A stretch of 64,000 nucleotides of DNA from Parcubacteria group bacterium (lineage in GTDB: Bacteria > Patescibacteriota > Minisyncoccia > Phycocordibacterales > UBA2100): contig CALRGX010000003.1 of assembly GCA_943358385.1 (NCBI GenBank), positions 2,771 to 66,770 on the forward strand, read 5' to 3'. Made by a program: the position numbers and the translations under genes. Shown piece after piece: positions 2,190 to 49,685 of this stretch (its first letter is position 1; each line of letters starts with the position of its first letter). The notes below the pieces were generated by a model that searched no databases, was not told the DNA's origin, and saw only the letters and a list, made by a program, of their open reading frames with translations.

Positions 2190-3281
2190 ATGTCTGCACT
2201 CATACTTATAGCAATCCTCGTGGTCCTCATCGTGGCGCACGAATTCGGGCACTTCATTGCGGCAAAACTCTCGGGTGTTCGCGTGGAAGAATTTGGTGTG
2301 GGGTATCCACCGCGTGCGCTTACCCTGGCGACTATTCGTGGCACCGAGTACACGCTCAACTGGCTGCCTTTTGGAGGATTTGTACGCTTGCTTGAAGAGG
2401 ACGGCATGGAGCTTGATCCACGTGCAGCAAAGCGCGCCGGCAGTTTTGCGGCCGCACCGCGCTGGAAGCAGGCGGTGATTCTTGCGGCAGGAGTTTTTTG
2501 TAATGTGCTGGCAGGCTGGCTCTTGTTTGCGGGAGCATTGACGGTGGGTTTGCCGGCGGCAGTGGCACCTGAAACAGAAGGCGCGCAGCTGATCATTAGT
2601 GGCGTGATGCCAGGCTCTCCTGCAGATGTAGGCGGACTGCGTGGTGGCGATGTGCTTTTGCAAGTCTCCCAAGGAGGCGCTCGTGCGACTCTTGATCCCG
2701 AAGGAGTGTCGACATTTATTGGTGCGCGCGGCGGTAAAGAAATCTCATTTCAAATTGAACGAGCTGATGTGGTGGAAGAGTATGCAGTACAGCCAGCCCA
2801 TGCGGTCATCCCAGGGGATGCATCAAAACCAGCAGTAGGCGTGGAATTGGCGATGGTTGCATACACCAAACTGCCGTTTGGTGAGGCGCTTGTTGAGGCA
2901 GCAGAAAATACGTGGAGCTCGCTCAAAAGTATTGTCGTTGGTTTGGGCACCCTGATTCGAGATGCATTTAATGCGGAAGCAAAATTGAATACGCTGGTGG
3001 GTCCGGTTGGGCTGACTTCAATTGTGGGCGATGCGGCGGGGCAAGGTATTGGACAAATTCTCGCCCTGGCTGCGTTCATTTCGCTTAACCTTGCAGTCAT
3101 CAACCTGTTGCCGATTCCAGCTCTTGATGGTGGAAGGCTTGTATTTGTGGGCATCGAAACGATCATTCGTCGTCGCATTCCGACGATTGTTTCGCAAATT
3201 CTCAACACCGTTGGTTTCTTGGCCATCGTACTTTTGATGGTGGCGATTACGGTCCAGGATGTGGCGAAGTTGGTTGGGTAG
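2190..3281 (+). CDS. rseP: Site-2 protease RseP (M50 zinc metalloprotease with PDZ domain)
   Basis: HEFGH zinc motif in the first TM helix, a PDZ-like central region and a C-terminal LDGG motif. Confidence 0.9.
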   Translation: MSALILIAILVVLIVAHEFGHFIAAKLSGVRVEEFGVGYPPRALTLATIRGTEYTLNWLPFGGFVRLLEEDGMELDPRAAKRAGSFAAAPRWKQAVILAAGVFCNVLAGWLLFAGALTVGLPAAVAPETEGAQLIISGVMPGSPADVGGLRGGDVLLQVSQGGARATLDPEGVSTFIGARGGKEISFQIERADVVEEYAVQPAHAVIPGDASKPAVGVELAMVAYTKLPFGEALVEAAENTWSSLKSIVVGLGTLIRDAFNAEAKLNTLVGPVGLTSIVGDAAGQGIGQILALAAFISLNLAVINLLPIPALDGGRLVFVGIETIIRRRIPTIVSQILNTVGFLAIVLLMVAITVQDVAKLVG

Positions 3282-3286
3282 GAGAA

Positions 3287-3400
3287 GGTACAAGGGAGAA
3301 GTAAGTAGGGTCTAGGAAAGGCGGAAAGAAAGCAGGGGAAAAGTGCGAGGTGGAAGGTGGCAGGAAAAGCAGAGGCAAAAAACAAAATCCAAGACAGAAG
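3287..3400 (+). repeat. Purine-rich intergenic repeat (family member E)
   Basis: Begins acaagggagaagtaagtagggtctagg and ends gtgcgaggtggaaggtggcagg. Homologous to the reverse complement of 10000-10140 and to copies at 30003, 43333 and 57333. Confidence 0.6.
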
Positions 3401-3404: not shown

Positions 3405-3440
3405 TACAGAAAGCGGGCGCCGTAGGCGCCCGCTTCGGGT
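3405..3440. terminator. GC hairpin between convergent genes (bidirectional terminator candidate)
   Basis: agcgggcgcc-gta-ggcgcccgct with a T-rich run on the minus side. Confidence 0.45.
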
Positions 3441-3441: not shown

Positions 3442-3834
3442 TCAAAAGGGAAGCAGTGGCTGAACAAGAAATGCTTCCTTTGTAGAGAGTACGTGTCCAA
3501 TGCCCCGATACTCGAGCAGCTGAATTTCGTAGTTGCCGCAGGTGCAGAACACGTCTTCGAGTATGTCGGTAGGAACCTGAGCCGTGAACAGAAGCGCACG
3601 TGTGCGTCCATGTTCCCGTGCAGGCAAGGACACTGGTTTTGCAAACTGCCAATGTTCTCGCCCCGCTTCCAAACCGAAGTGAGTTCGTGCGGCGGACGCC
3701 ACTACCGATTCATCAAGAACCGTGCTGGCATCGAATACGAGCCGCGGCACGCGCCATGATGCGTGTTCGACACACTTGCGGACGACCAGTAGTTCATCTG
3801 TACTGTGGATGCAGGCGACCACGATTTGCGTCAT
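3442..3834 (-). CDS. Hypothetical protein, possible PIN-like/Mut7-C-like fold
   Basis: ORF with internal Met start MTQIVVAC. No confident motif. Located between rseP and proS on the opposite strand. Confidence 0.3.
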   Translation of the reverse strand: MTQIVVACIHSTDELLVVRKCVEHASWRVPRLVFDASTVLDESVVASAARTHFGLEAGREHWQFAKPVSLPAREHGRTRALLFTAQVPTDILEDVFCTCGNYEIQLLEYRGIGHVLSTKEAFLVQPLLPF

Positions 3835-9714: not shown

Positions 9715-9924
9715 ATGACCATCGAAGGTCTGTGGATACTACGTGATGCAGTGAGCAAGGCGGGGCAAGTACTTGCCGCCGGGGCCATGGTTGCCTCGTT
9801 GGTGGTTCTGCCGCATGGTTTTGCAGCTTTGGGTCAGGCATGGGCGGATCTGCCCTGCTTCGCCTACCTGTGCCTCACCGTATCATGCCTCCTCTTCGAG
9901 GACTGCCTGAGACCGGTTGAATAA
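9715..9924 (+). CDS. Possible small hydrophobic protein (69 aa)
   Basis: GGGAG RBS 7 nt before the ATG. Hydrophobic product. Followed by two hairpins (9905-9934, 9948-9980). No similarity recognised. Confidence 0.3.
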   Translation: MTIEGLWILRDAVSKAGQVLAAGAMVASLVVLPHGFAALGQAWADLPCFAYLCLTVSCLLFEDCLRPVE

Positions 9925-9947
9925 CTTGTCTCAGGCCACCTATCTCT

Positions 9948-9980
9948 GCGCGGGCACCTCTGGTGCCCGCGTTCTGTATT
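9948..9980 (+). terminator. Hairpin terminator candidate
   Basis: gcgcgggcacc-tctg-gtgcccgcg followed by ttctgtatt. Confidence 0.5.
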
Positions 9981-9999: not shown

Positions 10000-10270
10000 T
10001 TTTTCTGTCATTCCTACCACCTACCACCTCGCACCTTCTGCTTCCTCTCTTGTTTTTCTTCTCCCCTAGACGCTATACGCTTTTTCCCTGCGTCTAGTTT
10101 TCCTTATACGCTAACCCCTACTCCCTTGTTTTCTGTTCTTCCTCCCACCTGTAACCTTCCACCTCTTACCTCTGCTTCGTTCCCCCGACGCTGTACGCTT
10201 TTCCCTTGCTTCTAGTTTTCCTCGCACCTGAAACCTGCGACCTCGCACCTTCTCCCTCCTCCCTATATAC
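10000..10270 (-). repeat. Two tandem purine-rich repeat copies in the lysK leader (family members C and F, minus orientation, pyrimidine-rich on the plus strand)
   Basis: Plus strand carries ccacctaccacctcgcaccttc and direct subrepeats gacgctatacgctttttccctgcgtctagttttcct and gacgctgtacgcttttcccttgcttctagttttcct. The reverse complement matches repeat E. Confidence 0.6.
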
Positions 10271-18746: not shown

Positions 18747-18819
18747 TCGGGGTATCGTATAGTGGTAGTACGCAAGGCTGGGGGTCTTGTAGCCCGAGTT
18801 CGATTCTCGGTACCCCGAC
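18747..18819 (+). tRNA. tRNA-Pro (anticodon GGG)
   Basis: Manual cloverleaf fold. Acceptor CGGGGTA/TACCCCG with C1:G72 and A73 typical of tRNA-Pro. D-arm with AGTGGTA loop. Anticodon loop CTGGGGG. T-arm CCGAG-TTCGATT-CTCGG. Confidence 0.85.
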
Positions 18820-18909
18820 CGAGTGCAGCGAGGGCGGGTACAGTAACCTGCCTGCGCAGGTTACGTCGAGAATCGAAGCGCCGCAGGATATGTTTGCGAG
18901 CACCACGAG
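18809..18909 (+). repeat. 101-bp direct repeat copy 1, starting inside the tRNA-Pro 3' end
   Basis: Identical to 18996-19096. Contains a gtaacctgc-ctgc-gcaggttac hairpin. Confidence 0.85.
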
Positions 18910-18995
18910 CAAACATCCGAGGCGCCGTCCGAGAACGCGAGGTCTTTTGTGAGGCCATGGGCCGAAGCAAAAGCCCGCGATTCTGGGACGATGAA

Positions 18996-19096
18996 GGTAC
19001 CCCGACCGAGTGCAGCGAGGGCGGGTACAGTAACCTGCCTGCGCAGGTTACGTCGAGAATCGAAGCGCCGCAGGATATGTTTGCGAGCACCACGAG
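18996..19096 (+). repeat. 101-bp direct repeat copy 2
   Basis: Perfect copy of 18809-18909, including the last 12 nt of tRNA-Pro (ggtaccccgacc). Confidence 0.85.
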
Positions 19097-19104
19097 CGCG
19101 CATT

Positions 19105-19169: not shown

Positions 19170-19721
19170 TTATTCTTTGCGACCCCGCTCCTTGCCGAAC
19201 ACCTTCAGAAGATTGGCTAGGTCAATGAACTCGTCGGCTTGTCGCCGGAGTTCGTCAGCCGCGAACGGTGCGGCTGGGTCTATGCTCGAGACCACGATGA
19301 CCCGTCTTCCCATGTCCTGAATTGCTTCGACGAGAGGAGTGAAGTCGGCGTTGCCGCTGAAGAGAACAATCTCGTCAACGGTAGGAGCAATCGTAATCGC
19401 CTGCACTGCCAGCAGGACATCGATCGTTCCCCTCAAGCGACGGTTCCCAGAAGTGTCGCCGCGTTCCTTCGCTAGCCGGGTCACCATGGTATAACCATTG
19501 TAATCCAGCCAGTCGAGCAATGGACGAATGCTCTGCACACCGTCCTCACCCTCCTCAACGGTCGTGAAATAGTACGACCGAAGAAGGTGGCTTCTTGCTC
19601 GGGCCCACAGCGTCAGCTTCCGGTAGTCAACATCCATGCCGAACGCTCTCGCGCAGGAATAAGTGTTGGCTCCGTCGATGAGTACAGCGCTTTTAGGCTT
19701 GTACTCTACTTTGTCGGCCAT
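19170..19721 (-). CDS. NYN/LabA-like domain protein (putative RNase)
   Basis: AVLIDGANTY and GNADFTPLVEA...VIVVS motifs typical of LabA/NYN (PIN-like) domains. Confidence 0.7.
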   Translation of the reverse strand: MADKVEYKPKSAVLIDGANTYSCARAFGMDVDYRKLTLWARARSHLLRSYYFTTVEEGEDGVQSIRPLLDWLDYNGYTMVTRLAKERGDTSGNRRLRGTIDVLLAVQAITIAPTVDEIVLFSGNADFTPLVEAIQDMGRRVIVVSSIDPAAPFAADELRRQADEFIDLANLLKVFGKERGRKE

Positions 19722-19947
19722 GCCGACCTCCATCGCCGCTTCAATACCACCCTGGGAGGTGGCCACCTCCACAGATGTGGAGGCCGCAGACAGCGGCAAA
19801 CCTTACGTCATATGGATATTATACCACATATTAGAAATAACACAATGGACCAAAAAAGGCGTGTGCACAAAGCTTTTTTGGCACGTTTCCTCGCATGGTA
19901 CGCTGGGGGGCGTGTCTAGCTACGTTCATCAACTCCGTGACTTCCTG

Positions 19948-22059
19948 ATGAAGTCGACCGCCCCGCAGGTCTTGATCTTCTCGAGCGCCGCACTGTACTT
20001 CCTCTTGGAATTTATTGTTGGGAAGTATCTGCTGCCGATTTTCGGTGGCTCGTGGGCAGTGTGGATCACGGTGCTGTCTTTTTTCACCACTGCCTTACTG
20101 CTGGGGTATCTGTATGCGCATTGGCTCATTCAAAAAAATGCACAGACGCAGCGGCAGTGGCATCGCGCATTGCTTTTGTTGGCTGCGCTTTGTGTCGGTA
20201 GTGTCGGCGCGGCTGTTGCTTTGGGCGCCAACATTCCCGCATACTTCGGCGTCGGCAACTTACCACCAGCTCTGGAAATTATTCTGCTACTCCTCTGCAC
20301 CGTTGGCATCCCTGCAATCGCCCTAGCTGCCACCAATACCTTGGTACAGCACTGGAGCTATGAAAACGAAGGCACGTATCGCCTGTACGCACTTTCGAAT
20401 GCAGGATCATTTGTGGGGCTACTCAGCTATCCGTTTCTGGTGGAGCCGCTCCTTGCGGTCCCTACACAAGCCGCCTTGTGGGCACTAGGTTTTATCTTCT
20501 TTGCCTACCAGTTGCGTCGCTTTATACAAAAAGATGCGCACGCAGTAGCAACGCACGTACACAGTGAAAAAGTGTCTATTGGTACCAAATTGCTGTGGCT
20601 CACTCTGGCCGCATTCCCCGCGCTTCTGATGGTCGCCACTACCGCGCAAATCACACACGTCGTTGCCCCTATCCCGCTTCTCTGGATGGTGCCGCTTGGT
20701 TTGTATTTGCTTTCATACGTGCTCGCGTTTTCAGGGAGAGGTGGGGGGAGGGTGGCCACCGGGATGTTTCTTGCGGCGGCATGGGGGTCTCTCTACCTTC
20801 TTGATGCAGGGGTCACATCGTTTATGGAGCGGCTCGGGGTGTACCTTTCGCTTCTGTTCTTCGCGTCCTTGGTTCTCCATGCTCATCTATTTGCTGCACG
20901 GCCAAAAGGTGCGCAGCTTTCACTCTTTTACTTCTATGTATCACTCGGTGGCGCCCTGGGCACACTGCTGATTTCTTTTGGTGCACCGCTGGCCTTCAAT
21001 GATCTGTGGGAGTTTCCCATCGCGGTGCTCATAGGGGTGATACTTTCCACCGTATTCTTCCTTTACTCTTTGGTAGGGCCGAAATTTATTTGGCCAGTAC
21101 GCATCCTTGCCGTCGGCTTCGTCTTTATTGCAGTGAATCAATTCTACGTATTCACCCAGGCTGAATTTGGCTTTGAGGGGACCGAGCGCAACTTCTACGG
21201 CATCACGATGGTATACAAAACCGACGACAAGGTCTCGCTCTATCACGAGGAAACGTTGCACGGTTCGCAATTTACGGATGCTGAAAATTCGAGAAAGCCA
21301 ACGACGTACTATTCGTTGCATGGGGCAGTCGGGCGCTCGTTTGGCTACGAGCGTGTGGTGGCGCATCCTGAGGGTCCGCTTAATGTGGCGATTATAGGAC
21401 TAGGAACAGGTACGGTCGCTGCATATTGCCGTCCAGGAGACTCATTTGTGTACTACGAAATAGATCGACGCATGGAGCGTATTGCGCGCAACGATTTCAC
21501 GTATTTGTCGCACTGTCCGGGGGTCGAAGTGCGCATTGGCGACGCACGTCGTGTGATGGAATTGGAGGTAGATGCAGGAAAAAAACAAATGTATGACATC
21601 CTGATCATCGATGCGTTCAACGACGACAACATTCCCGCACATTTGGTGACCGTTGAGGCGCTCGAGACCTACGCACAGCTGATGCGGCACGACGACAGTA
21701 TCATCGCGTTCCATACATCGAATCGTTATCTAGAGCTGGCGCCGCTCGTAGTGTCTCTTGCCAAAGAAAAAGGTTTTGCGGCAGTCGTCATAGATGGTGG
21801 CGGTGAGGCAGATGTGGGCGGCACTTCATCTCAGTGGGTACTGCTCTCGAAAAACACCGATGTATTCAAGCGTGAGCTCTTTCTAGAAAATTCAGACGAA
21901 CTACCGACGTATCTGCCGCGCCCGTGGACCGACACCTACTCAAATATTCTCCCTATCATTTCCGTACCCACCTCTTTTGCAGACATAATTGGCGAGAGAA
22001 TATTTTTTCCTACTCCATGGCCGCTGTATGCATCCTCGACCCTTGATACGGCAGAATAA
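19948..22059 (+). CDS. Membrane-anchored spermidine-synthase-like protein (multi-TM N-domain plus aminopropyltransferase-like C-domain), paralog A
   Basis: About 10 TM helices. C-terminal GLGTGTVAAY...DILIIDAFNDDNIPAHL spermidine-synthase-fold motifs (COG4262-like). Confidence 0.75.
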   Translation: MKSTAPQVLIFSSAALYFLLEFIVGKYLLPIFGGSWAVWITVLSFFTTALLLGYLYAHWLIQKNAQTQRQWHRALLLLAALCVGSVGAAVALGANIPAYFGVGNLPPALEIILLLLCTVGIPAIALAATNTLVQHWSYENEGTYRLYALSNAGSFVGLLSYPFLVEPLLAVPTQAALWALGFIFFAYQLRRFIQKDAHAVATHVHSEKVSIGTKLLWLTLAAFPALLMVATTAQITHVVAPIPLLWMVPLGLYLLSYVLAFSGRGGGRVATGMFLAAAWGSLYLLDAGVTSFMERLGVYLSLLFFASLVLHAHLFAARPKGAQLSLFYFYVSLGGALGTLLISFGAPLAFNDLWEFPIAVLIGVILSTVFFLYSLVGPKFIWPVRILAVGFVFIAVNQFYVFTQAEFGFEGTERNFYGITMVYKTDDKVSLYHEETLHGSQFTDAENSRKPTTYYSLHGAVGRSFGYERVVAHPEGPLNVAIIGLGTGTVAAYCRPGDSFVYYEIDRRMERIARNDFTYLSHCPGVEVRIGDARRVMELEVDAGKKQMYDILIIDAFNDDNIPAHLVTVEALETYAQLMRHDDSIIAFHTSNRYLELAPLVVSLAKEKGFAAVVIDGGGEADVGGTSSQWVLLSKNTDVFKRELFLENSDELPTYLPRPWTDTYSNILPIISVPTSFADIIGERIFFPTPWPLYASSTLDTAE

Positions 22060-22074
22060 TGGAGCATCAGCTAC

Positions 22075-24144
22075 ATGTCTACTATGAAACAGATAATACA
22101 ATTCTTTAAACGCTTTAGTCCTGCGGAGACACTGATCTTCTCGAGCGCCGCACTGTACTTCCTCTTGGAATTTATTGTTGGGAAGTATCTGCTGCCGATT
22201 TTCGGTGGCTCGTGGGCAGTGTGGATCACGGTGCTGTCTTTTTTTACCGTCGCCCTTTTGTTGGGGTATGTGTATGCGCATTGGCTCACCAAGCGAACAG
22301 TTGCGGTACAACAAAAAATGCACCGGACGCTTCTTCTGGTTGCACTCGTGCCTGCGGCGCTCGTAGGTATAGCGATCATGAGTGGAGCGAGCGTGCCTGC
22401 ATACTTCGGCGTCGGCAACTTACCACCAGCTCTGGAAATTATTCTGCTACTCCTCTGCACCGTTGGCATCCCTGCAATCGCCCTAGCTGCCACCAATACC
22501 TTAGTACAGCACTGGAGCTATGAAAACGAAGGCACGTATCGCCTGTACGCACTTTCGAATGCAGGATCATTTGTGGGGCTCCTCAGCTATCCGTTTCTGG
22601 TGGAGCCGCTTTTTTCCGTGCGGGTGCAAGCGGTATTGTGGGTCATCGCATTTGTGTACTTTGTATATGCCATGCGGCACTTCATCCTGCATACCGCGGC
22701 CATAGAAGTGGCAAAAGATGAACATCACACACCCGTTTCAGTCTCACGGCGCCTCACGTGGCTTGGACTCGCCGCATTCCCCGCGCTTCTGATGGTCGCC
22801 ACTACCGCGCAAATCACACACGTCGTTGCCCCTATCCCGCTTCTCTGGATGGTGCCGCTTGGTTTGTATTTGCTTTCATACGTGCTCGCGTTTTCAGGGA
22901 GAGGTGGGGGGAAAGTCGTCATGACGCTCTTCGTTCTCTCTGCAGGAGGGTCGTTGTACCTACTGGACGCGAGCGTGCATGTGTACATGTTGCGCTTGTT
23001 TGTGTACTTGCCGCTTCTTTTCTTTGCATCACTCTCGATTCATGCTCTTTTGTATCGACTACGCCCTCATGGTGGGGCGCTGTCGTCTTTTTATCTGTAT
23101 CTGTCCCTTGGCGGGGCATTGGGCACGCTTTTGGTTTCTTTTGGTGCGCCGATCATTTTCAACGAGCTCTGGGAGTTTCCGCTTGCAGTGTTTGCCGCAT
23201 TTTTGGGAGGCTGTGCGCTCCTCTTGTACAGTGCATCTGCACACCTGTCGTCATGGGTGCCGCGTGTACTCATGGTGGCAGTGGCCTTTGGAGCGGGGCA
23301 GTTTTTCTATGCATTTACGCAGGAATATTTTGGTTTTGAAGGAGTGGAAAGAAATTTCTACGGCATCACCACGGTGGTAGATGGCCCTGACAAAGTGACC
23401 CTGTTGCACGAGCAAACGGTGCATGGCACACAGCTTAAGTTTGATGAGCGCGTACCTACCGCGTACTTTACGCTCCACAGCGCCATTGGAAGAACGTTTG
23501 GCTATCAGCGTGTGGTGGCACACCCCGATCGGCCGCTTTCGGTGGGCGTGATTGGATTGGGCGCAGGCACCATGGCGGCGTACTGTCGACCAGGAGACAC
23601 GTTTGTATATTACGAAATCGACGCACGCATGGAGCGCATTGCGCGCAACGATTTCACCTACCTATCGCACTGCCCCGGGATAGAAGTGCGCATCGGTGAT
23701 GGACGACGCTTGATGGAGCAAGAAGTGGCGGCGGGGCAGACGGGCGTCTACGATGTGCTGATGGTTGATGCATTCAACGACGACAACATTCCTGCACACT
23801 TGGTAACGGTAGAAGCGCTGGATGTCTACGGCAAACTATTGCGCGAGAAAGACAGTATCATCGTTTTTCAAGCATCGAATCGTTACATTGCCCTTGCGCC
23901 TTTGGTTATCGCACTCGCCAAAGAGCGTGGCTATTTCGCGGTAGTGATGGAAGGGGATGTGAGCATGGACACTGCGTCACTCACTTCGCAATACGTGCTT
24001 CTTTCGAAAGATCCGCACGTGTTTAGCCAGAAACTGTTCCTTGAGGCATCGGTGGAGCTGCCGAAGTATTTACCGACTGCATGGACTGATACCTACTCAA
24101 ACATTCTGCCGCTACTCACGCTGCCGAGCCCTTTTCGGGATTAA
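22075..24144 (+). CDS. Membrane-anchored spermidine-synthase-like protein, paralog B
   Basis: Same architecture as A. Three DNA blocks nearly identical to A (22127-22250, 22396-22620, 22770-22912). Confidence 0.75.
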   Translation: MSTMKQIIQFFKRFSPAETLIFSSAALYFLLEFIVGKYLLPIFGGSWAVWITVLSFFTVALLLGYVYAHWLTKRTVAVQQKMHRTLLLVALVPAALVGIAIMSGASVPAYFGVGNLPPALEIILLLLCTVGIPAIALAATNTLVQHWSYENEGTYRLYALSNAGSFVGLLSYPFLVEPLFSVRVQAVLWVIAFVYFVYAMRHFILHTAAIEVAKDEHHTPVSVSRRLTWLGLAAFPALLMVATTAQITHVVAPIPLLWMVPLGLYLLSYVLAFSGRGGGKVVMTLFVLSAGGSLYLLDASVHVYMLRLFVYLPLLFFASLSIHALLYRLRPHGGALSSFYLYLSLGGALGTLLVSFGAPIIFNELWEFPLAVFAAFLGGCALLLYSASAHLSSWVPRVLMVAVAFGAGQFFYAFTQEYFGFEGVERNFYGITTVVDGPDKVTLLHEQTVHGTQLKFDERVPTAYFTLHSAIGRTFGYQRVVAHPDRPLSVGVIGLGAGTMAAYCRPGDTFVYYEIDARMERIARNDFTYLSHCPGIEVRIGDGRRLMEQEVAAGQTGVYDVLMVDAFNDDNIPAHLVTVEALDVYGKLLREKDSIIVFQASNRYIALAPLVIALAKERGYFAVVMEGDVSMDTASLTSQYVLLSKDPHVFSQKLFLEASVELPKYLPTAWTDTYSNILPLLTLPSPFRD

Positions 24145-29746: not shown

Positions 29747-30022
29747 ATGAGCAACCTACACAACACGGGCCCGTCACTTTTCGCGAGCGAAGCAGAGGCA
29801 CTTCTGGCACCTGGGAAAATCGTTCGGCATTATAAAGGCGGCATCTACCGCATTATCGACGAACACGTGCGTCACAGTGAGACGCTGGAAGAAGGCGTGC
29901 TCTACGAGCATCTGTGGCCCAACAAGCATGGGTTTTGGTTTCGACCTGTAGCCATGTTCTGGGGGAATGTAGAGCCAGAGAAGGGTGGTGGGCCGCGATT
30001 TACCGTTGTAGATAGGGAATAG
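29747..30022 (+). CDS. DUF1653-like small protein
   Basis: YKGGIYRIIDEHVRHSETLEEGVLYEHLWPN pattern matching the DUF1653 family. Confidence 0.55.
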   Translation: MSNLHNTGPSLFASEAEALLAPGKIVRHYKGGIYRIIDEHVRHSETLEEGVLYEHLWPNKHGFWFRPVAMFWGNVEPEKGGGPRFTVVDRE

Positions 30023-30062
30023 GGACAAGGGTTTAGGGATTAGCGTATAGAAAGGATAAGCA
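30003..30062 (+). repeat. Purine-rich intergenic repeat (family member A)
   Basis: agggacaagggtttagggattagcgtatagaaaggataagcaggaaga. Confidence 0.55.
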
Positions 30063-30079
30063 GGAAGACAAAAAAAGAA

Positions 30080-30104
30080 GAGGCCGGCGCATAGCGCCGG
30101 CCTC
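30080..30104 (-). terminator. Rho-independent terminator for the minus-strand two-gene unit
   Basis: gaggccggcgc-ata-gcgccggcctc, with tttttttct on the minus strand after the stem. Confidence 0.7.
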
Positions 30105-30834: not shown

Positions 30835-30878
30835 GGCGCTATACCCTAAAACCTAAACCCTACTCCCTTGGCTTTCAT
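30835..30878 (-). repeat. Purine-rich intergenic repeat, partial (family member D, minus orientation)
   Basis: Reverse complement reads ccaagggagtagggtttaggttttagggtatagcg. Confidence 0.5.
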
Positions 30879-30950
30879 GGCCCTATCGTCTAGCGGCTAG
30901 GACACGGCCTTCTCAAGGCTGTAACCGGGGTTCGATTCCCCGTAGGGTCA
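30879..30950 (+). tRNA. tRNA-Glu (anticodon CTC)
   Basis: Cloverleaf with acceptor GGCCCTA/TAGGGTC, D-arm GTCT-AGCGGCTA-GGAC, anticodon loop TTCTCAA and T-arm CGGGG-TTCGATT-CCCCG. Resembles E. coli tRNA-Glu. Confidence 0.85.
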
Positions 30951-32476
30951 CATTCAGAAACTTGGTCGGAAGTAAGCGCGAAATCTGGGCGCGCCGAAGG
31001 CGCGCTGTATGGCGAGGGAATGAAATCCGTCTTGCGGGCGCGGGCGAATTCGGAGGGCGGGCAAAATGAGATCGAAATAGTTTTGTCTTTTAGCGCGGGG
31101 TTCGTTCCGAAGGAACGCAGAAAATCTCGCATTTCGTGGAGATTTTCACTGGTTGCCAGAAACCCCGCGCGTTTTGAATCCAAAATCCACTTCCGCAGGG
31201 GTTCGACCCAATTCTTTCTCTCGGCTCGGGCAGATGAAGATTTTGCTTGAAGCGAGCTCCTTTGACGCATGAGCGCGTCCTTTTTCGTTAGATATATGTC
31301 GCGCTCAATATCGTGGTTTAAGTACAAATCCACGAGTGCGTCGAGCTTCGCTTCAAGCGTTTTCAAATCTTCCTTCATCTGCCCGAGCCGATTTCCCGAA
31401 GCGTGAATTTCGTCATGCTCAAAAACCTCTACTTTTTTGAGCATATAATTTGCCCACGCTTCGGGAAGCGACACTGTTTGAAGCTGTTCCTTTACTTGGA
31501 GAGCGAGCGCATCTTCCTGCAAATATCCTTGACCACATTTTCCTTTCTTTTTCGTACAACGATAATAGCGATACCGACCGCCCATTTTTCCAGTACACCA
31601 TTGAGCAGTTATCATCGAGCCACATTCCCCACAACGAAAAAGTCCGGTGAAAGGAAAATTGTGAGATATTTTGCTATGCCTCGGATGCGCTCGCACGAGA
31701 AGTTGTTTCTGCACAGCTTCAAACAGTGTCGGAGAAAGAATTGGCGCAAAGCTTCCGGGAAAATATTCCTCACGATGCTTGGTAAATCCCAAGTATGCAC
31801 GATTCGTCAAGATCCTTTTCACGGAAGCTTTGCCAAGGGGCGTTCCGGACTTTTGAGCAACACCGTGGTCAGCCAAAAATTGCGACAACGAAATGAGGGT
31901 ATGTGTTCCTTTTACATACTCGCCAAACGCGCGCACAATAATTTTAGATTTCACCGGATTAGGTTCGATATTTCGTGTGGTGGGGTTGTTCACATACCCG
32001 AATGGAGCGCGGGTTAGCCATTCTCCGCGTCGCAATTTTTGGCGCATACCTCGCTCAACATTTTGCTTCAAATTGTCGGAATAATATTTGCTCTGTCCGA
32101 ACGCCACTTGAAGCATAAATAGCCCCTGCGGAGTGGGTTCAAACCAAAATGTCGGAAAACGCAAAGAGATGATTTTTGAAGTGTCTACGGCGTAAATGAT
32201 GCGTCCTCCGTCAATACTATTTCTCGCTAGTCGGTCAGGATGCCATGCGAGGATGCCAACATTGCCTAACTTATCAATTTTGAGCATCATTTCGCCGAAC
32301 ACTTCTCGTCCCGGACTCTTTGCGCTTTTCGACTCTTGAAATTCCTCAAGAATTTCAAGATTTTCTCTGCTCGCAAATTCACGAAGTTCCACAAGTTGAG
32401 CTGGAATACTCATCACTTGCTTATCGTCATCTTCGGTGCTCTTGCGAGCATAGAGAAAATATTTTGGTTTGTTCAT
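30890..32476 (-). CDS. Large serine recombinase (resolvase catalytic domain, recombinase domain, zinc-ribbon, coiled-coil)
   Basis: YARKSTEDDDKQVMSIPAQ with catalytic Ser, and a DRLAR motif. CGECGS...YYRCTKKKGKCGQGY zinc ribbon. The last ~57 codons are encoded by IR-A plus the antisense of tRNA-Glu. Confidence 0.85.
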   Translation of the reverse strand: MNKPKYFLYARKSTEDDDKQVMSIPAQLVELREFASRENLEILEEFQESKSAKSPGREVFGEMMLKIDKLGNVGILAWHPDRLARNSIDGGRIIYAVDTSKIISLRFPTFWFEPTPQGLFMLQVAFGQSKYYSDNLKQNVERGMRQKLRRGEWLTRAPFGYVNNPTTRNIEPNPVKSKIIVRAFGEYVKGTHTLISLSQFLADHGVAQKSGTPLGKASVKRILTNRAYLGFTKHREEYFPGSFAPILSPTLFEAVQKQLLVRAHPRHSKISHNFPFTGLFRCGECGSMITAQWCTGKMGGRYRYYRCTKKKGKCGQGYLQEDALALQVKEQLQTVSLPEAWANYMLKKVEVFEHDEIHASGNRLGQMKEDLKTLEAKLDALVDLYLNHDIERDIYLTKKDALMRQRSSLQAKSSSARAERKNWVEPLRKWILDSKRAGFLATSENLHEMRDFLRSFGTNPALKDKTISISFCPPSEFARARKTDFIPSPYSAPSARPDFALTSDQVSECDPTGNRTPVTALRRPCPSR

Positions 32477-32646
32477 AAATAGTTTTTGGATTCAAAAAAA
32501 GAAACTATTAAGATCTCATTTCTTGCTTTCCGCCCGCCCTCCGAATTCGCCCGCGCCCGCAAGACGGATTTCATTCCCTCGCCATACAGCGCGCCTTCGG
32601 CGCGCCCAGATTTCGCGCTTACTTCCGACCAAGTTTCTGAATGTGA
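30948..32646 (-). mobile_element. Large serine recombinase gene bounded by perfect 115-bp inverted repeats (IR-A), abutting the tRNA-Glu 3' end
   Basis: 30948-31062 is the exact reverse complement of 32532-32646. The left IR starts in the last 3 nt of tRNA-Glu. Confidence 0.8.
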
Positions 32647-32866
32647 TCTAATCATATCCTTTGCGCGAACCTTTTTCGAGAGCTAATCGCACGCTCCGCG
32701 TGCGTGGTGGCTTTAGACCAATGCGTACGCTCCGATTGCGTGGTGACTCTCACAATCCGACCAGCGCCTCGCGGACTCGGCGCTCCGCCCTCGCCCCGTT
32801 CCGCCTTTCCATACTTATTTTTTCGCGGGGGGGGATTTTTTTAAAATTGAATGGGCGGAAACGGGG
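32644..32866 (+). repeat. IR-B left copy (223 bp)
   Basis: Reverse complement of 38872-39092. Internal ~22-bp subrepeats (acgctccg..tgcgtggtg x2). G8 and T7 homopolymer tracts (the right copy has C6 and A7). Confidence 0.85.
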
Positions 32867-32872
32867 CGAGGG

Positions 32873-33298
32873 CTACGAACGTAACTTCTTATAAAGAACA
32901 AATCCTATAAACATAGCCGCACCTCCTATCACGAGATGTGGCGTGTTAAGAACCAATCTCGTAAACATATCTGCAACTGGCTCTGTATCAAAATGAAAAA
33001 GATTGAGATTGAGGTATGCTTTACCAGCAAAAACTCCCACGACACCGTCAAGGAAATAAGCTGTCCCAAATGCTCTAAAATAGAACAAGGCGGCGCCACG
33101 AGAATACCACGCTGCAAGTGCAGCCCAGATTCCGGAGAGGATATGCAGATTGTTTGCTATGGGTTCAAGTTTGAAAAAGCCGAATATCAAGCCGTTTTCC
33201 GCAATAATGAAAGGCATGTAATTCATTGCAGCCAAAAAAGTAAACATAGCTGTAAATAACCACGCCAAATTTTGAACTGTAAAATATTTATAGACCAT
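32873..33298 (-). CDS. Small polytopic membrane protein (141 aa), DUF4383-like guess
   Basis: Four predicted TM helices. First gene inside the IR-B cassette. Confidence 0.4.
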   Translation of the reverse strand: MVYKYFTVQNLAWLFTAMFTFLAAMNYMPFIIAENGLIFGFFKLEPIANNLHILSGIWAALAAWYSRGAALFYFRAFGTAYFLDGVVGVFAGKAYLNLNLFHFDTEPVADMFTRLVLNTPHLVIGGAAMFIGFVLYKKLRS

Positions 33299-33359
33299 GA
33301 GGGTGTCGCTAGTTATTAGTAAAATGTATTATAATAATAGCACAGCTTAAATACGTCCT

Positions 33360-34964
33360 GTGGCAAAACTACGATCACACTTGAAACCGAAAATCTCAAG
33401 CATCCTGCTTGTCTTTTTTGCGCTTCTCGCCTTGATTCTTGGAAAGAAAACATACGATCTCGCCGCCGCGCCGAAAAATGAGAGAGATTGCAATTTTGTC
33501 TATCCGTATACGACCGATAAAACAACGATTGAAATACGATATTCCGGTTTGGATGAATCAGGACTCGAAGTGCTTCAAAAGGGCGGGACGATCAATGATG
33601 CGAGCTGTCTCAATAAAACGAATGTATATGCGATTGTGCAGGTCAGGAGCGAGGACGATATCGAGGCCGCGCTCCAATTCGCCCGTGAGCATGATCTCAA
33701 AGTCACTCCTGCAGGTGAGCATCACAGTATGGGCGGACAGAGTTTCTCCCGCGGTGGTCTCGTGCTCGACATGCGAGAGTTTGACCAGATAAAGGTAGAC
33801 AAAGCAAACAAGATACTCAATGTACAAAGCGGCGCGTCATGGAAAGAAGTACAGGCAGTGCTTGATCCGTTGGGACTTGCGGTAAAGGCGATGCAATCCA
33901 TCAACATCTTCACAGTGGGAGGAACGCTAAGCGTCAATGCTCACGGCATTGTGCATGATCCGGGACAGATCGCCCCGACGGTGCGTCAGATTCGAGTCAT
34001 GTTGAGTTCCGGAGAAATTAAAACTGCAAGCCCCACCATAAATCCTGAATTGTTTAGCGCTGTGCTCGGCGGCTACGGCCTCTCCGGCATTATTCTCGAT
34101 GTTGATCTTGATATCGTTGACAACGAGTCATATGCGTGGAAGACGGAATACATGGATTTCAAAGATTTTCCCGAATATTATCGGAACGAGATTATCGGGA
34201 ACGACGACGTCGGACTTTTTTATGCGCGACTCTCGATTGCGCCGGGCTCTTATCTCACAGAGACGGCAATTCATCGGTATGAAAAACTTGATTTTGAGAT
34301 GGAGCCGGAGCCGCTACGGGGTGCATCAAAAGTTTGGATAAAGCGTCTTATCTTCAATATTTCAAAAACCGGAGGACTTGGCCGATGGATGCGCTGGACT
34401 ACCGAAAAATATCTTGAGCCGGGCGTGCATACCTGTATCTCCCGCAACCAAGCGATTGCGACTGGCCATGAGGAGGAGATTTGTGTGGCAAGTCGAAACA
34501 ACAAAATGAATCAATCAATGGAATACCTTGACGTCCGACAGAAAGATACCAACATCCTGCACGAATACTTTATCCCTCTTGAAAACTCGGTAGCGTTTAT
34601 CGAGGGATTGAAAAAAGTAGTAAGGGAGGATGACGTAAATCTTTTGAATGTGACCCTGCGCATCGTCACGAAGGATACGATTACCGCGCTGCCATACGCA
34701 AAAGACGACCGCATCGCATTCGTGCTTTACTTCAATCAAAAATTGAACGAAAAGGACAGCAAGAAATTGGAGAAAGCGACCGTGGACTTGATTGATCTCG
34801 CTGTTGCAAACGGAGGAACATATTATCTCCCGTATCAACTCTATTACTCAAAAGAACAGTTGCGCGCAGCGTATCCCGAAATAGACCGCTTCTTTGGACT
34901 GAAGCACAGATATGACCCGATTGGTTTATTCTCTAACTCCTTTTACGAAAAGTACGGCGACTGA
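33360..34964 (+). CDS. FAD-linked oxidoreductase (FAD_binding_4 / vanillyl-alcohol-oxidase or DprE1-like fold) with N-terminal TM anchor
   Basis: LKVTPAGEHHSMGGQSFSRGGLVLDM FAD-binding (PCMH) motif. 534 aa. N-terminal TM. Confidence 0.7.
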   Translation: MAKLRSHLKPKISSILLVFFALLALILGKKTYDLAAAPKNERDCNFVYPYTTDKTTIEIRYSGLDESGLEVLQKGGTINDASCLNKTNVYAIVQVRSEDDIEAALQFAREHDLKVTPAGEHHSMGGQSFSRGGLVLDMREFDQIKVDKANKILNVQSGASWKEVQAVLDPLGLAVKAMQSINIFTVGGTLSVNAHGIVHDPGQIAPTVRQIRVMLSSGEIKTASPTINPELFSAVLGGYGLSGIILDVDLDIVDNESYAWKTEYMDFKDFPEYYRNEIIGNDDVGLFYARLSIAPGSYLTETAIHRYEKLDFEMEPEPLRGASKVWIKRLIFNISKTGGLGRWMRWTTEKYLEPGVHTCISRNQAIATGHEEEICVASRNNKMNQSMEYLDVRQKDTNILHEYFIPLENSVAFIEGLKKVVREDDVNLLNVTLRIVTKDTITALPYAKDDRIAFVLYFNQKLNEKDSKKLEKATVDLIDLAVANGGTYYLPYQLYYSKEQLRAAYPEIDRFFGLKHRYDPIGLFSNSFYEKYGD

Positions 34965-35891
34965 TTAGCGGTGTTCATACTTATCCCGCATCTTCTTCGC
35001 AAGTGGTGGTTCGTCCGTGACGAGGCCGTATGAATTCTTGCGAAGCGCGAAGTCAACCGACGTTTCGTCGTTGACCGACCAGAGAAACACCGGGTATCCC
35101 TTCGCAAGGAGTTTATCGATCACGGCTTCATCAACTTGATACTGAATACTGACCGCATCGGGCTTTACAAGTTTTCTAATCAGAGTCCGCGTCCACTCCG
35201 TTTGTAAGTACCACGGCAATGTAACTCGGTCTTCTTCCTTCGTTTCCGCAATCCGTTTCGGATCCCACCCTGTATCCATGAATATGAAAACCGTCTTGAT
35301 GCGCGGATCCATTTTTTTGAGGCGATGCAGGACAACCGGATTGAACGAACTTATATACACCCGCTCATACGCATTATGTTTTGCTAGTACCTCGTTCACG
35401 CGCCGCTCGATGCCTGTATCCGACGCGGCGGGCACTTTCAACTCAACCATCAGGTATGCATCGGGTGTTATCTCCTTGACAAAATCCTCGAACGTCTTGA
35501 TGTATACGCCAGAAAATCCGTTCCCATACTTTGTTCCGAGATCATACGTTTGCAGTTCTGTAAGCGTCTTTGCATCAATGCGGCCTTCGCCCGTTGTAAA
35601 CCGCTCAAGGGACACGTCATGGAAAATCACCACTTCTTCATCCTGCGAGAATTGAGCATCAACATCTACACCGTCAAACCCTTGTGCAACGGCAATTCGC
35701 GCTCCCTCCAAGCTGTTGTCAGGCGCATGATTACCAAAACCGCGATGTGCAAACACCAATATTTGTTCGTCAGTTGAAATTAAGCCTTTGTATTTTGGCT
35801 CGTATAAAAACAGGTACGCTGGAAGTGCAACGACCACCAAGACAATAACCGAGGTGTATTTGAATATTTTTCCTTTTGCGAAAGTGGGCAT
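34965..35891 (-). CDS. Glycerophosphodiester phosphodiesterase family protein, membrane-anchored
   Basis: HRGFGNHAPDNSLEG and FDGVDVDAQFSQDEEVVIFHD GDPD catalytic motifs. Confidence 0.75.
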   Translation of the reverse strand: MPTFAKGKIFKYTSVIVLVVVALPAYLFLYEPKYKGLISTDEQILVFAHRGFGNHAPDNSLEGARIAVAQGFDGVDVDAQFSQDEEVVIFHDVSLERFTTGEGRIDAKTLTELQTYDLGTKYGNGFSGVYIKTFEDFVKEITPDAYLMVELKVPAASDTGIERRVNEVLAKHNAYERVYISSFNPVVLHRLKKMDPRIKTVFIFMDTGWDPKRIAETKEEDRVTLPWYLQTEWTRTLIRKLVKPDAVSIQYQVDEAVIDKLLAKGYPVFLWSVNDETSVDFALRKNSYGLVTDEPPLAKKMRDKYEHR

Positions 35892-35940
35892 ATTCTCCTA
35901 TATCAAGATATACTAACAGTATACTTCCTTTCACAAACGA

Positions 35941-36828
35941 ATGACATTCTCTGCTTTCAAAAAACATAAGGTGGTGCGCTTGATTGCGCGAGTGGCTATC
36001 GGTACAGTCGTACTTTTCGCAATTCTTGTGTTATCACTTCTGTTGTTTCGCGAGCCTTCAAACGATAGGGATTGGGCGTTTGATCAGTCAATATTGCCGT
36101 ATGCAATTTTTGACGGCGACATAGTGACGATAAAAAATATCCGCAACTTCTCCTATGCGTCGCGCAACGAATATGCGCCAAACTATTACGACAAGACGTT
36201 TGATTTACGAACGATAGAATCAGTGGATTATATTGTTGAGCCACTTGCCAGCATCGCCGCCGCGCACACGTTTTTGAGTTTCGGCTTTAAGAATGGCGAT
36301 CATGTTGCCATCTCCATTGAAATACGAAAAGAAAAGGGCGAGGAATTTTCCCCGTTCCGAGCACTCGTCAACGAGTACGAGATCATGTATGTCATCGTTG
36401 ATGAGCGCGACACTATACAACTCCGTGCTATACATCGGGACAACCCTGTTTATCTCTATTCTGCCAAAGTATCGCCTGATAAGATAAGACCGCTATTCGT
36501 TGATATACTGGAGCGAGCAAACAAGCTGAAAGAGAAGCCGGAATTTTACAACACTCTTACAAACACCTGCGCAACGAACATTGCAGACCATATCAACAAT
36601 ATCTCGCCTGGACGCATCTCGTTTGATTGGCGAATTTTGCTTCCACTTGATTCCGATCAATTTGCCTACGAACTTGGATTGATTGACAACTCACTGCCGT
36701 TTGAGGAAGTACGCCAGAAACATCTTATAAACGATTTTATAAAAGAGTACGCAGACGACCCCGACTTTTCCGTCAAGATACGCGAAGCGCAACAGCGCTC
36801 GCTCGCTAATACCGACTCATCCCAGTAA
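35941..36828 (+). CDS. DUF4105-like (Lnb N-terminal-domain-like) protein
   Basis: N-terminal TM. YNTLTNTCATN motif resembling the DUF4105 signature. Confidence 0.5.
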   Translation: MTFSAFKKHKVVRLIARVAIGTVVLFAILVLSLLLFREPSNDRDWAFDQSILPYAIFDGDIVTIKNIRNFSYASRNEYAPNYYDKTFDLRTIESVDYIVEPLASIAAAHTFLSFGFKNGDHVAISIEIRKEKGEEFSPFRALVNEYEIMYVIVDERDTIQLRAIHRDNPVYLYSAKVSPDKIRPLFVDILERANKLKEKPEFYNTLTNTCATNIADHINNISPGRISFDWRILLPLDSDQFAYELGLIDNSLPFEEVRQKHLINDFIKEYADDPDFSVKIREAQQRSLANTDSSQ

Positions 36829-38371: not shown

Positions 38372-38871
38372 ATACGGCTTCGCGCCTCGGACATTTCCGC
38401 TAGGGCGTCCACGCCCTTGGATGAGCGCCGCCGTAATCTTGCAATACAGAAATTCGAAGCGGAAGCGACACCACGAACGCTATTTTGAAAACGAGAAGGG
38501 GGTTGTGCGAGGGAGGACTCCGAAGGCACAAACAACGAAGGCAAAGACATAGGTAAACTACTAACTAAAATAAAGCACTGAATACTCTAGCAAACCACTG
38601 CGAGGAGGAGACCGAAGCTGGGGGGAGGATTCCTTCCTACCCCCAAACAGCATGGCGCCCGAGCACCCGCTCCGCAGAGCGGGAGTGCGAGGAGAAGCGC
38701 CAAACCTAGACATCTAGGCGCGAGTAGCCCTAGCGGAAATGTTCCGAGGCGGATGCCGAGGATGGACTCCATGGGCTGGACGAACCACTAGCGATAAAAA
38801 ATGACACGAGGCTCAATATTGAATTTGCATTTTCTTCCGACTGCTTCTTCCTTAGAAGAAGCCCGGCCGAG

Positions 38872-39092
38872 CCCCGTTTCCGCCCATTCAATTTTAAAAA
38901 AATCCCCCCGCGAAAAAATAAGTATGGAAAGGCGGAACGGGGCGAGGGCGGAGCGCCGAGTCCGCGAGGCGTTGGTCGGATTGTGAGAGTCACCACGCAA
39001 TCGGAGCGTACGCATTGGTCTAAAGCCACCACGCACGCGGAGCGTGCGATTAGCTCTCGAAAAAGGTTCGCGCAAAGGATATGATTAGATCA
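38872..39092 (-). repeat. IR-B right copy (221 bp)
   Basis: Reverse complement of 32644-32866 except for homopolymer tract lengths. Confidence 0.85.
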
Positions 39093-39308
39093 CCAGTGTG
39101 GAGACAAGATTCGATTCGGAGTGGTTTTCTTTGGCGGCTGCCAAAGAAAACCACTGATTCTGGGCGATGCCGCGCGCTGCGCGCGAGTCTTGAGCCTCCT
39201 TTCGGGTGGATACCAGAAGCGTCACGCGGAGAGCATTGTAAAAATCGCTGCACGGATCAAAAGCTCTTGCGTTATAACGCGCACTTTTGGGCGCTTACTA
39301 CGGAAAGT

Positions 39309-43334: not shown

Positions 43335-43425
43335 TAGGGAGAAGGGACAAGGGTTTAGCGTTTAGCGCATAGGTAAAGTAAGAAAAACAAGAGGGAACGG
43401 TCGAGTTGCGGAGGATGGTGGGGGA
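43333..43425 (+). repeat. Purine-rich intergenic repeat (family member B)
   Basis: agggacaagggtttagcgtttagcgcatag...ggaggatggtgggggaag. Confidence 0.55.
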
Positions 43426-43691
43426 AGATATAGTTGCGGCAGGTCAGTCCCTTCTAGAGGGGATGAGAGGCGTCTTCGCCTTCAGGTTAAGTTGCGCCCC
43501 TCGGGACGCAATGGTGGTGGGGAATCACCTTCTTGTGCCGTTCTGGAGCAAGTTTGTTTGGGACGAGTCCCAGACAGTAAAGGAAATACCACATAGGTGC
43601 GGTTCTACGGAGCCGTGCACCCAAAGATTTATCGCCACACCCTGACCTCGCTTTTCGGCCCGCGCACCCTGTGCGCGGGCCACTTCTTTTT
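43395..43691 (+). ncRNA. Candidate structured non-coding transcript / long atpB 3' UTR ending in tandem terminators
   Basis: About 350 nt without a credible ORF. Several GC stems. Terminator hairpins at 43658-43691 and 43710-43742. Confidence 0.2.
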
Positions 43692-43709
43692 AATATTTGC
43701 CAAAACGAA

Positions 43710-43742
43710 GGGCGCAGACTGAAAGTCTGCGCCCTTTTTGGT
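43710..43742. terminator. Second terminator hairpin (bidirectional)
   Basis: gggcgcagac-tgaaa-gtctgcgccc followed by tttttggtg. Confidence 0.65.
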
Positions 43743-43758
43743 GTCGTGTGGGTGTTGC

Positions 43759-44106: not shown

Positions 44107-44391
<285 letters not shown>

Positions 44392-47970: not shown

Positions 47971-47996
47971 ATTATCTAAATTTAACAAAATTTCGT

Positions 47997-48278: not shown

Positions 48279-49685
<1,407 letters not shown>

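Follow-up and report, generated by a model that had tools for sequence, protein, structure and literature searches.

Degenerate G-rich heptamer arrays at gene boundaries in a 64-kb window of a Parcubacteria group bacterium

What are the purine-rich repeats that recur between genes in a 64,000-nucleotide stretch of a Parcubacteria group bacterium (contig CALRGX010000003.1 of assembly GCA_943358385.1), hereafter called the window? An earlier note, made from the letters alone, listed seven segments and took them for copies of a REP/MITE-like element (repetitive extragenic palindrome or miniature inverted-repeat transposable element) or for a shared small-RNA or leader module. All seven segments at those coordinates bear arrays, which are spread over six loci, named R1 to R6 here, with coordinates given as window positions. 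The key feature of these arrays, absent from the earlier note, is a strict 7-nt period. When the arrays were pooled, identity at a lag of 7 nt was 0.497 compared to 0.324 after shuffling (z = 9.8), with harmonics at lags of 14 nt (z = 4.9) and 21 nt (z = 2.7). We think it probable that the arrays are a lineage-specific, degenerate, G-rich heptamer simple sequence repeat (SSR) resembling the short tandemly repeated repetitive (STRR) sequences, and that they grew by slippage and unequal recombination. Taken as a whole, with action at gene boundaries included, this is the best explanation that we can offer, and we hold it to be somewhat likelier true than false.

A seven-nucleotide register and two modules

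Several tests placed the arrays far beyond chance, and alignments showed that their similarity is one of position as well as of composition. The motif CAAGGGNNTAGSGNNTAG matched the window 4 times, compared to 0 times in 100 shuffles, and AGGTGNNAGGTGNNAGG, with at most 1 mismatch, matched 11 times, compared to 0.05 in shuffles. A heptad regular-expression scan of the window returned 18 matches, where 1.4 were expected by chance, and a scan for 7-nt periodicity that used no motif returned five regions, compared to 0 in shuffles, four of which are the G-rich arrays. Local alignments scored against composition-matched shuffles gave z values of 14.0 for R3-R5, 11.1 for R2a-R2b (the two sub-copies of R2), 10.7 for R1-R2b, and 10.4 for R3-R4; R2b aligned to R3, R4, and R5 at z ≈ 7, and R6 reached only ≈ 3. 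The motif counts, the alignments, and the lag-7 identity thus agree with the earlier note that the repeats form a genuine family and did not arise from low complexity by chance.

The unit of repetition is a heptamer of the form TAGGGnn, TAGCGnn, or AGGTGnn. On one strand, a core of AGG, TAG, or GGG returns at 7-nt intervals, with the final two to three positions of each unit left free. In the 34 units that make up the module B logo (see below), the AGG core carries 1.6-1.8 bits per position, followed by 0.84 bits at T4, 0.61 bits at G5, 0.26 bits at position 6, and 0.05 bits at position 7. The strand asymmetry proposed previously is real, although "almost no pyrimidines" overstates it: the G-rich strand of the pooled arrays is 38% A, 39% G, 13% T, and 10% C, and hence 77% purine.

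Two modules are built from these units. Module A reads ACAAGGG-nn-TAGGG-nn-TAGCGTATAG, and module B reads AAGCAG...AGGTGCG-AGGTGGn-AGGTGGn-AGGAA. Module A stands alone in R3, R4, and R5, module B stands alone in R2a and R6, and both occur together in R2b and, weakly, in R1. A single element of 60-130 nt was therefore not what we found; the copies are degenerate heptad arrays assembled from two modules. The shared start and end motifs on which the single-element description relied occur together only in R2b and weakly in R1, while R3, R4, and R5 have the start alone, and R2a and R6 have the end alone. R2 is in addition a tandem duplication with a period of ≈118 nt. The arrays and their parts are as follows.

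R1, 3279-3400, G-rich on the plus strand: starts with the TAG stop codon of the gene for the M50 site-2 protease (rseP, 2190-3281).
Parts of R1: weak module A, 3284-3318; module B (AAGTGCG AGGTGGA AGGTGGC AGG), 3326-3372; then an A-rich tail.
R2, 10005-10264, G-rich on the minus strand: sub-copies R2a and R2b.
R2b, 10005-10136, minus strand: full composite, with module A at 10095-10136 and module B (AGGTGCG AGGTGGT AGGTGGT AGG) at 10005-10053.
Internal hairpin of R2b, 10066-10097: 8 bp, CTAGACGC paired with GCGTCTAG.
R2a, 10133-10264, minus strand: tandem partner of R2b, with AGGnnnn runs at 10133-10181 and 10220-10264.
R3, 30009-30079, plus strand: module A (TAGGGAA TAGGGAC AAGGGTT TAGGGAT TAGCGTA TAG) and an A-rich tail.
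R4, 30837-30878, minus strand: module A (CAAGGGAG TAGGGTT TAGGTTT TAGGGTA TAG), the plus strand being C-rich.
R5, 43335-43425, plus strand: module A (TAGGGAG AAGGGAC AAGGGTT TAGCGTT TAGCGCA TAG) and a purine-rich tail.
R6, 57327-57385, plus strand: module B only (AGGTGAT AGGTGGA AGGAGTT AGGTGTT AGAAGGTG).

Nearly every unit contains AGG or GGG; tracts of three G residues (G3) occur in module A, and module B has only G2 tracts. Four G3 tracts with 4-nt loops are found only in R3 (30015-30038), which on its sequence reads as a canonical G-quadruplex (G4) motif, and each of the remaining arrays contains either two or three G3 tracts or G2 tracts. Tandem Repeats Finder (TRF) scored the arrays at only 30-44 and missed most of them, because the units are degenerate. 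Classical tandem-repeat tools are consequently unsuitable for arrays of this kind.

Placement at gene ends

Where the arrays lie relative to genes follows a strand-polar rule. At all six loci (6/6), the array fills a short non-coding strip and abuts an open reading frame (ORF) or a tRNA on its 5' side, as read along the G-rich strand. R5 begins directly after the TAG stop of atpB (43332-43334), as R1 begins on that of the M50 protease gene, and R3 covers the last codons and the TAG stop (30020-30022) of a DUF1653 ORF (29747-30022). The description of all copies as intergenic is thus nearly right, with the overlap at R3 as the exception and with R1 and R5 lying on or immediately after a stop codon. 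The remaining three arrays occupy the non-coding strand, 8-40 nt upstream of lysK, tRNA-Glu, and an HlyD-like gene: R2 ends 13 nt before the lysK ATG (10278), against a TATATACT box; R4 ends at the 5' end of tRNA-Glu (30879-30951); and R6 lies ≈30-40 nt upstream of the start of an HlyD-family gene (57298, minus strand). The arrays do not fall regularly on the 5' or on the 3' side of genes as transcribed; what stays constant is that the abutted ORF lies 5' along the G-rich strand. Three of the six loci lie between convergent genes and two between divergent genes. An explanation in terms of replication strand was rejected because the orientations alternate (+, -, +, -, +, +) within 55 kb.

On the far side of R1, R2, and R3 stands a GC-rich hairpin.

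3414-3436: GC-rich hairpin, GCGGGCGCC-GTAG-GCGCCCGC, which separates R1 from the stop codon of the convergent gene 3442-3834 (minus strand).
9948-9972, plus strand: terminator-like hairpin after the 69-aa ORF 9715-9924, with a T-rich tail that runs into the C-rich strand of R2.
30080-30104, minus strand: terminator-like hairpin that ends the minus-strand genes running from 30724 to 30126, with a T-run, TTCTTTTTTT, that complements the A-rich tail of R3.

A terminator scan supported only the R2 and R3 hairpins, both with T-tails on the C-rich strand; the hairpin at 3414-3436 was not called a terminator by the consensus scan and is kept in congeners that lack the array. Because the T-tails lie on the C-rich strand, the order on that strand is hairpin, T-rich stretch, C-rich array, and next gene.

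These hairpins, together with the position of R1, R3, and R5 in what would be the 3' untranslated regions (UTRs) of rseP, DUF1653, and atpB, are what speaks for a small-RNA family or a shared 5'-leader or 3'-UTR module that yields discrete transcripts, as does the location of R6 within a 173-nt stretch that is identical between two species (see below). Such a family should show conserved secondary structure, which the arrays lack. Folding in both orientations gave minimum free energies of 0 to -10 kcal/mol for 66-124 nt, with z values between -0.9 and +0.4, and the sole exception was the local 8-bp hairpin in R2 (10066-10097). Rfam at the gathering threshold reported only two tRNAs in the window, and around R6 it reported nothing at E ≤ 1. 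A sigma-70-like promoter scan called none in or beside any array, the orientation of the arrays relative to flanking genes is mixed, and the T-tails of the R2 and R3 hairpins lie on the opposite, C-rich strand. The small-RNA or leader-module reading proposed previously finds no structure beyond shuffles and no Rfam match, and we regard it as highly improbable.

The Shine-Dalgarno (SD)-like units pointed out previously appear to be compositional. An SD-like tetramer stands upstream of only 13 of 47 gene starts, and a role of the arrays as SD sequences or as a ribosome sponge was rejected because SD-like motifs are few and many genes look leaderless. Of the same 47 starts, which come from independent gene calls, 13 have a TAnnnT box, commonly TATACT, that lies 4-18 nt ahead of the ATG. 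As a separate observation, a TATACT-like -10 box lies 6-12 nt before the ATG, with no SD sequence, at many genes (864, 7350, 10278, 48288, 57298 on the minus strand, and 59083), which suggests, from sequence, that leaderless mRNAs are widespread in this lineage.

If the arrays act at all, we suggest that they would do so in cis as boundary tracts that need no secondary structure and depend on strand asymmetry. On the G-rich strand, an array would supply TAG stops in all three frames right after the gene, together with phased G-tracts. The other strand, rich in C and poor in G, would present an unstructured tract that lies downstream of a hairpin terminator and ahead of the next gene, a tract that could load Rho or a factor that reads the heptads and so insulate the adjacent gene from incoming transcription. 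A Rho utilization (rut) tract has to be an unstructured RNA, rich in C and poor in G, of at least ≈70-80 nt, located upstream of where Rho-dependent termination takes place. In composition and position, the C-rich strand of the arrays is consistent with this idea, being 39% C and 10% G, unstructured, and located after hairpin terminators at R2 and R3. By their arrangement, R1, R2, R3, and R5 would fit an insulator. We consider a specific insulating or terminating effect possible, but doubtful.

Two further features adjoin the genes named here. A T-rich heptamer array, (TTCTAAT)n, was found by TRF and the periodicity scan at 2142-2183, just upstream of the M50 protease gene, and its sequence is unrelated to the G-rich family. 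The gap between atpB and atpE is 830 nt (43335-44163), which is unusually long within an ATP synthase operon; relatives retain parts of it, and small ORFs on the minus strand are called in it (e.g., 43759-44010).

Conservation, remodelling, and origin

Proteins that are ≥90% identical to those of the window are labelled as belonging to a Candidatus Pacebacteria/Paceibacterota metagenome-assembled genome, now Minisyncoccota. Contigs of the same species (species A) are 99.9-100% identical to the window. One strain differs by 12 single-nucleotide polymorphisms (SNPs) over 11.5 kb, two of which fall inside module B of R1 (3352 and 3364). In a sister species, species B (GCA_021733565.1; ≈88% identity, with nucleotide values of 78-91%), arrays are present at the orthologs of R2 to R6, which are all five of the sites that could be checked, and an extra pair of arrays lies between atpG and atpD. 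The degree of conservation varies from locus to locus. R3 is 100% identical in species B over 92 nt (29999-30090), and R6 lies inside 173 identical nt (57309-57481), the longest identical run between the two species at that locus. R4 is ≈85% identical, with substitutions that fall within units. R2 and R5 differ by module-sized indels, which in the R2a region measure 21 nt and ≈34 nt. After the atpB stop, species B carries two additions, a five-unit AGGTGnn module and another module A. The longest identical run at the R2 locus (9927-9978) covers the hairpin at 9948-9972.

More distant congeners lack the arrays at the sites compared. Neither the regular expression nor nhmmer, run with two sequence profiles, found arrays in ≈59 kb of congeners (≈75% nucleotide identity; L126-L129) that covers the R1, R2, R5, and R6 sites; in particular, the array is absent at the R1 ortholog in L127 and L128 and at the R5 and R6 orthologs in L126. 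The hairpins and flanking genes are conserved at these array-free sites. Upstream of the congener lysK, there is a single CCCCTAGACGCT...CTATACGCT stretch just before the ATG, and the same words recur in the R2 arrays. When the window was extended through exact protein matches by 9.1 kb upstream and 9.2 kb downstream, the regular expression, the periodicity scan, and nhmmer found no further arrays in these 18.3 kb, and a lineage-specific pattern (ACAAGGGNNTAGSGNTTAGCGYATA) had 0 matches in metagenome contigs. The arrays are thus restricted to species A and B, with a mixture of conservation and remodelling.

Some observations on these loci stand apart. Between atpG and atpD (47971-48287), species A has an ORF of 82 aa (47997-48245) with low GC content at third codon positions, and in species B (L130, 6360-6503) the atpG stop is instead followed by a short G-rich module and the atpD start preceded by an inverted C-rich one. 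The identical stretch 57309-57481, in a locus of 91% overall identity, runs ≈100 nt past R6 and includes a hairpin, CCGCTAGC...TTAGCGG; as a structured RNA, it folds no better than its shuffles (z = +1.08) and has no Rfam match. A 33-kb metagenome contig of the same strain (L002) breaks ≈30 nt past R5 (window 43454), and the arrays may cause such assembly breaks.

Does the dispersal of the copies imply transposition? The earlier note's REP/MITE-like element would here be a non-autonomous mobile element, of the REP, BIME (bacterial interspersed mosaic element), or MITE kind, that is copied by a transposase or a RAYT-type enzyme (REP-associated tyrosine transposase). The dispersed copies are positionally similar (z of 7 to 14), R1 and R2b align over ≈110 nt with the hairpin included, R3 and R4 lie 788 nt apart in inverted orientation on either side of a two-gene cassette, and orthologous sites in congeners lack the arrays, all of which speaks for such an element. 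The structure of the arrays argues otherwise. A repeat search and alignment detected neither terminal inverted repeats nor palindromes within the arrays or at their ends, no target-site duplications were found, and comparison with the empty congener sites revealed no clean insert boundaries of the kind that a MITE leaves. Nor did the arrays fold into an imperfect palindrome of 20-40 nt, as a REP or BIME would, and the adjacent GC hairpins are typical of the lineage and occur in array-free congeners as well. The copies vary in length and module content and begin exactly at stop codons or promoter boxes instead of at random intergenic points. The hairpin common to R1 and R2b was considered as a sign of copying and rejected, because the same general GCGGGCGCC...GGCGCCCGC terminator type stands at the R1 and R2 sites of congeners without arrays. 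The absence of further copies in the 18.3 kb that flank the window also speaks against mobility, and the sole recombinase nearby belongs to a separate insertion at tRNA-Glu. We therefore rate a mobile element as scarcely credible.

That insertion and other mobile or repeated features of the window are recorded here in their own right. At the 3' end of tRNA-Glu sits an inserted gene for a large serine recombinase (30890-32476, minus strand; Resolvase, Recombinase, and Zn_ribbon_recom domains), bounded on both sides by perfect 115-nt inverted repeats (30948-31062 and 32532-32646) in a span of 30879-32646. By its sequence, it looks like a recent insertion, because the sequence after tRNA-Glu differs in species B (L134). 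Adjoining it, a pair of 198-nt inverted repeats (32643-32840 and 38896-39093; 98% complementary) brackets ≈6 kb with genes for an FAD-linked oxidase, a GDPD phosphodiesterase, an Lnb_N-domain protein, and a PLD-like protein, and the whole of 32643-39093 is possibly a mobile segment, either invertible or composite. Inside the 3' end of tRNA-Pro (18748-18820) starts the first copy of a perfect 102-nt direct repeat (18809-18910 and 18996-19097), which looks like an att-type duplication from integration. Finally, 19663-24144 contains two large tandem paralogs (798 aa and 689 aa; no Pfam domain), in which segments spaced by ≈2160 nt are 72-94% identical at the nucleotide level.

For the G-rich arrays, we favour growth and remodelling by slippage and unequal recombination in the register of heptads and modules, and copies of modules would pass between loci by short-patch recombination rather than by transposition. 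Several points weigh against this explanation and its proposed boundary action. Such degenerate units, which TRF scores at only 30-44, do not suit a classical SSR. Slippage alone leaves unexplained that non-periodic words (ACAAGGG and AAGCAG) are shared, in one order, by separate loci, and not all indels between species A and B are multiples of 7. Between species A and B, few stretches are as conserved as R3 and R6, which lie in identical runs of 92 and 173 nt at loci with 87-91% overall identity, and the spacer positions of the units drift around an AGG core that does not vary; both observations point to constraint or a binding function, which neutral SSR dynamics would not predict. As to the boundary action, the insulator idea is weak at R4 and R6, where the flanking genes diverge, and to our knowledge, published descriptions of rut sites require no 7-nt period.

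These points bear on two alternatives. In the first, the arrays are merely neutral by-products of slippage, decaying heptamer microsatellites that survive where non-coding space allows. This would account for their presence in species A and B and not in congeners, for the indels and the gain and loss of modules that separate A from B, and for the enrichment of strain SNPs in R1. Heptanucleotides are also the commonest class of long SSR in prokaryotes and have been put down to polymerase slippage, according to Mrázek et al. (2007) as cited in PMC4679880. Neutral decay sits poorly with the uneven loss across the seven unit positions, with the conservation of R3 and R6 above that of the flanking coding sequence, with the strand-polar placement at 6/6 loci, and with the same ordered non-periodic words at different loci; we judge it improbable.

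The second alternative takes the arrays to be multivalent binding platforms, in which a ring-shaped or oligomeric nucleic-acid-binding protein would read one AGG or TAG core per 7 nt of single-stranded RNA or DNA and thereby regulate termination, stability, or promoter use at the adjacent gene boundary, in the manner of HutP or TRAP. In Bacillus, the HutP site is (UAGNNNN)3, and TRAP binds NAG repeats. Module A can be written as TAG-N4-TAG-N4-(A/T)AG, which matches the NAG spacing of the HutP site, and the arrays, being unstructured also as RNA, would be accessible. The strict 7-nt spacing of an invariant AGG core with positions 6-7 free, the fully identical R3 and R6 in two species with 87-91% overall identity at these loci, and the strict placement at gene ends (6/6) are consistent with such a platform. 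Deletion of heptamer repeats in Nostoc altered reporter output, and an unknown partner was proposed there (bioRxiv 10.1101/2022.06.06.494920). Several findings argue the other way. No candidate protein was identified; the arrays appear dispensable, because congeners with the same genes have none; whole modules were gained or lost between the sister species; and one of the strain SNPs in module B of R1 lies within an AGG core. HutP and TRAP act at sites in a 5' leader that precedes a terminator, whereas the window arrays follow stops or lie on the non-coding strand upstream of starts, with no antiterminated 5' leader. We know of no hutP or mtrB gene in this lineage. The binding-platform reading is retained, as an unlikely but serious candidate, because neutral SSR dynamics leave the AGG core and the conservation of R3 and R6 unexplained.

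Comparison with known heptamer repeats

Similar arrays occur across at least seven phyla. A cross-phylum genome scan with the pattern ACAAGGGNNTAGSGNNTAG returned at least 120 loci, generic (nnTAGGG)n arrays from many phyla among them, a sample biased by its pattern. Among the matches listed, 84 of 120 lie within longer arrays in 7-nt register, and the phyla represented are Cyanobacteria, Acidobacteriota, Planctomycetota, Chloroflexota, Bacteroidota, Gemmatimonadota, and Patescibacteria. Some of the matches listed are STRR-type arrays in Nostoc and Rivularia, and 21 of those listed have an inverted C-rich array within 300 nt. By crude ORF calls on the matches listed, the closer neighbour is the 5' ORF for 34 arrays and the 3' ORF for 20 (p = 0.08). 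A bolder proposal is that heptad-phased AGG/TAG arrays are a gene-boundary signal shared across phyla and read by a conserved oligomeric single-strand-binding factor, which may be Rho, with its six primary sites, or an unknown HutP-like ring protein. If this were true, the pattern of core and spacer, the strict placement, and the conservation of R3 and R6 would reflect selection for binding and not the debris of slippage. We consider this proposal speculative and improbable.

Heptamer repeats of other kinds serve as a first comparison. TAACTGA direct repeats occur in marine Beggiatoaceae, Cyanobacteria, and Bacteroidetes (MacGregor, 2015, PMC4679880), and other heptamer families near gene starts are known (PMC4679880; bioRxiv 10.1101/2022.06.06.494920). 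The TAACTGA repeats are exact, are not G-rich, and lie a few nt upstream of starts on the coding strand, whereas the start-proximal arrays of the window lie on the non-coding strand and half of the window arrays follow stop codons. Closer to the window arrays are the cyanobacterial STRR sequences and long SSRs, which, as far as the account of Mrázek et al. (2007) is relayed in PMC4679880, share with them the tandem heptanucleotides, the intergenic location, the lineage-specific abundance, and a proposed origin by slippage. The difference is that those are near-perfect repeats of a single unit, whereas neighbouring units in the window need not match, and TRF barely detects them.

The closest class is that of Rehm et al. 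(2015, PLoS One, PMC4692102), who described G-rich heptamers in Xanthomonas (GGGAATC) and in Nostoc (GGGGA(C/T)T). By their account, these repeats are over-represented in non-coding DNA and lie almost exclusively nearer to the 5'-neighbour ORF, whatever the orientation of the ORFs, either within 50 bp of or overlapping a stop codon (coding strand) or within 50 bp upstream of a start codon (non-coding strand). They favour co-oriented genes and avoid divergent ones, keep their intergenic positions across related species while varying extensively in length and sequence, are not tied to mobile elements or insertion sequences, and have no known function (PMC4692102). A preference for four units and the formation of G-quadruplexes also count among the traits of the class. 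The window arrays share the 7-nt unit with one G-tract each, the strong strand asymmetry, and the non-coding bias. They obey the 5'-neighbour-ORF rule at 6/6 loci, and between species A and B they keep their sites while varying in length (the indels at R2 and R5) and in sequence (the substitutions in R4).

The G-rich heptamer class, including the cyanobacterial STRR sequences, is known; the example in this lineage, from a bacterium of the candidate-phyla-radiation type, is new, and no prior description of it was found in the literature searched. Taken alone, the window adds one more example of the class and no new mechanism. The finding that the positional rule of Xanthomonas and cyanobacteria also holds in a small-genome lineage labelled Paceibacterota suggests a general process at gene boundaries rather than a quirk of two taxa. 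For annotation, it implies that such tracts should not be called MITEs, small RNAs, or ribosome-binding sites.

The differences from the published repeats lie in sequence, architecture, setting, and host. The window units (TAGGGnn, TAGCGnn, and AGGTGnn) are far more degenerate than GGGNATC or GGGGA(C/T)T, module B has only GG tracts, and four G3 tracts occur only in R3. The window arrays are composites of two modules with A-rich linkers and a higher-order duplication of ≈118 nt, three of six loci are convergent and two of six divergent, and the host is labelled Paceibacterota/Minisyncoccota. Because the window units differ from those published and are degenerate, we conclude that the arrays belong to the same class as the repeats of Rehm et al. 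but form a different sequence family.

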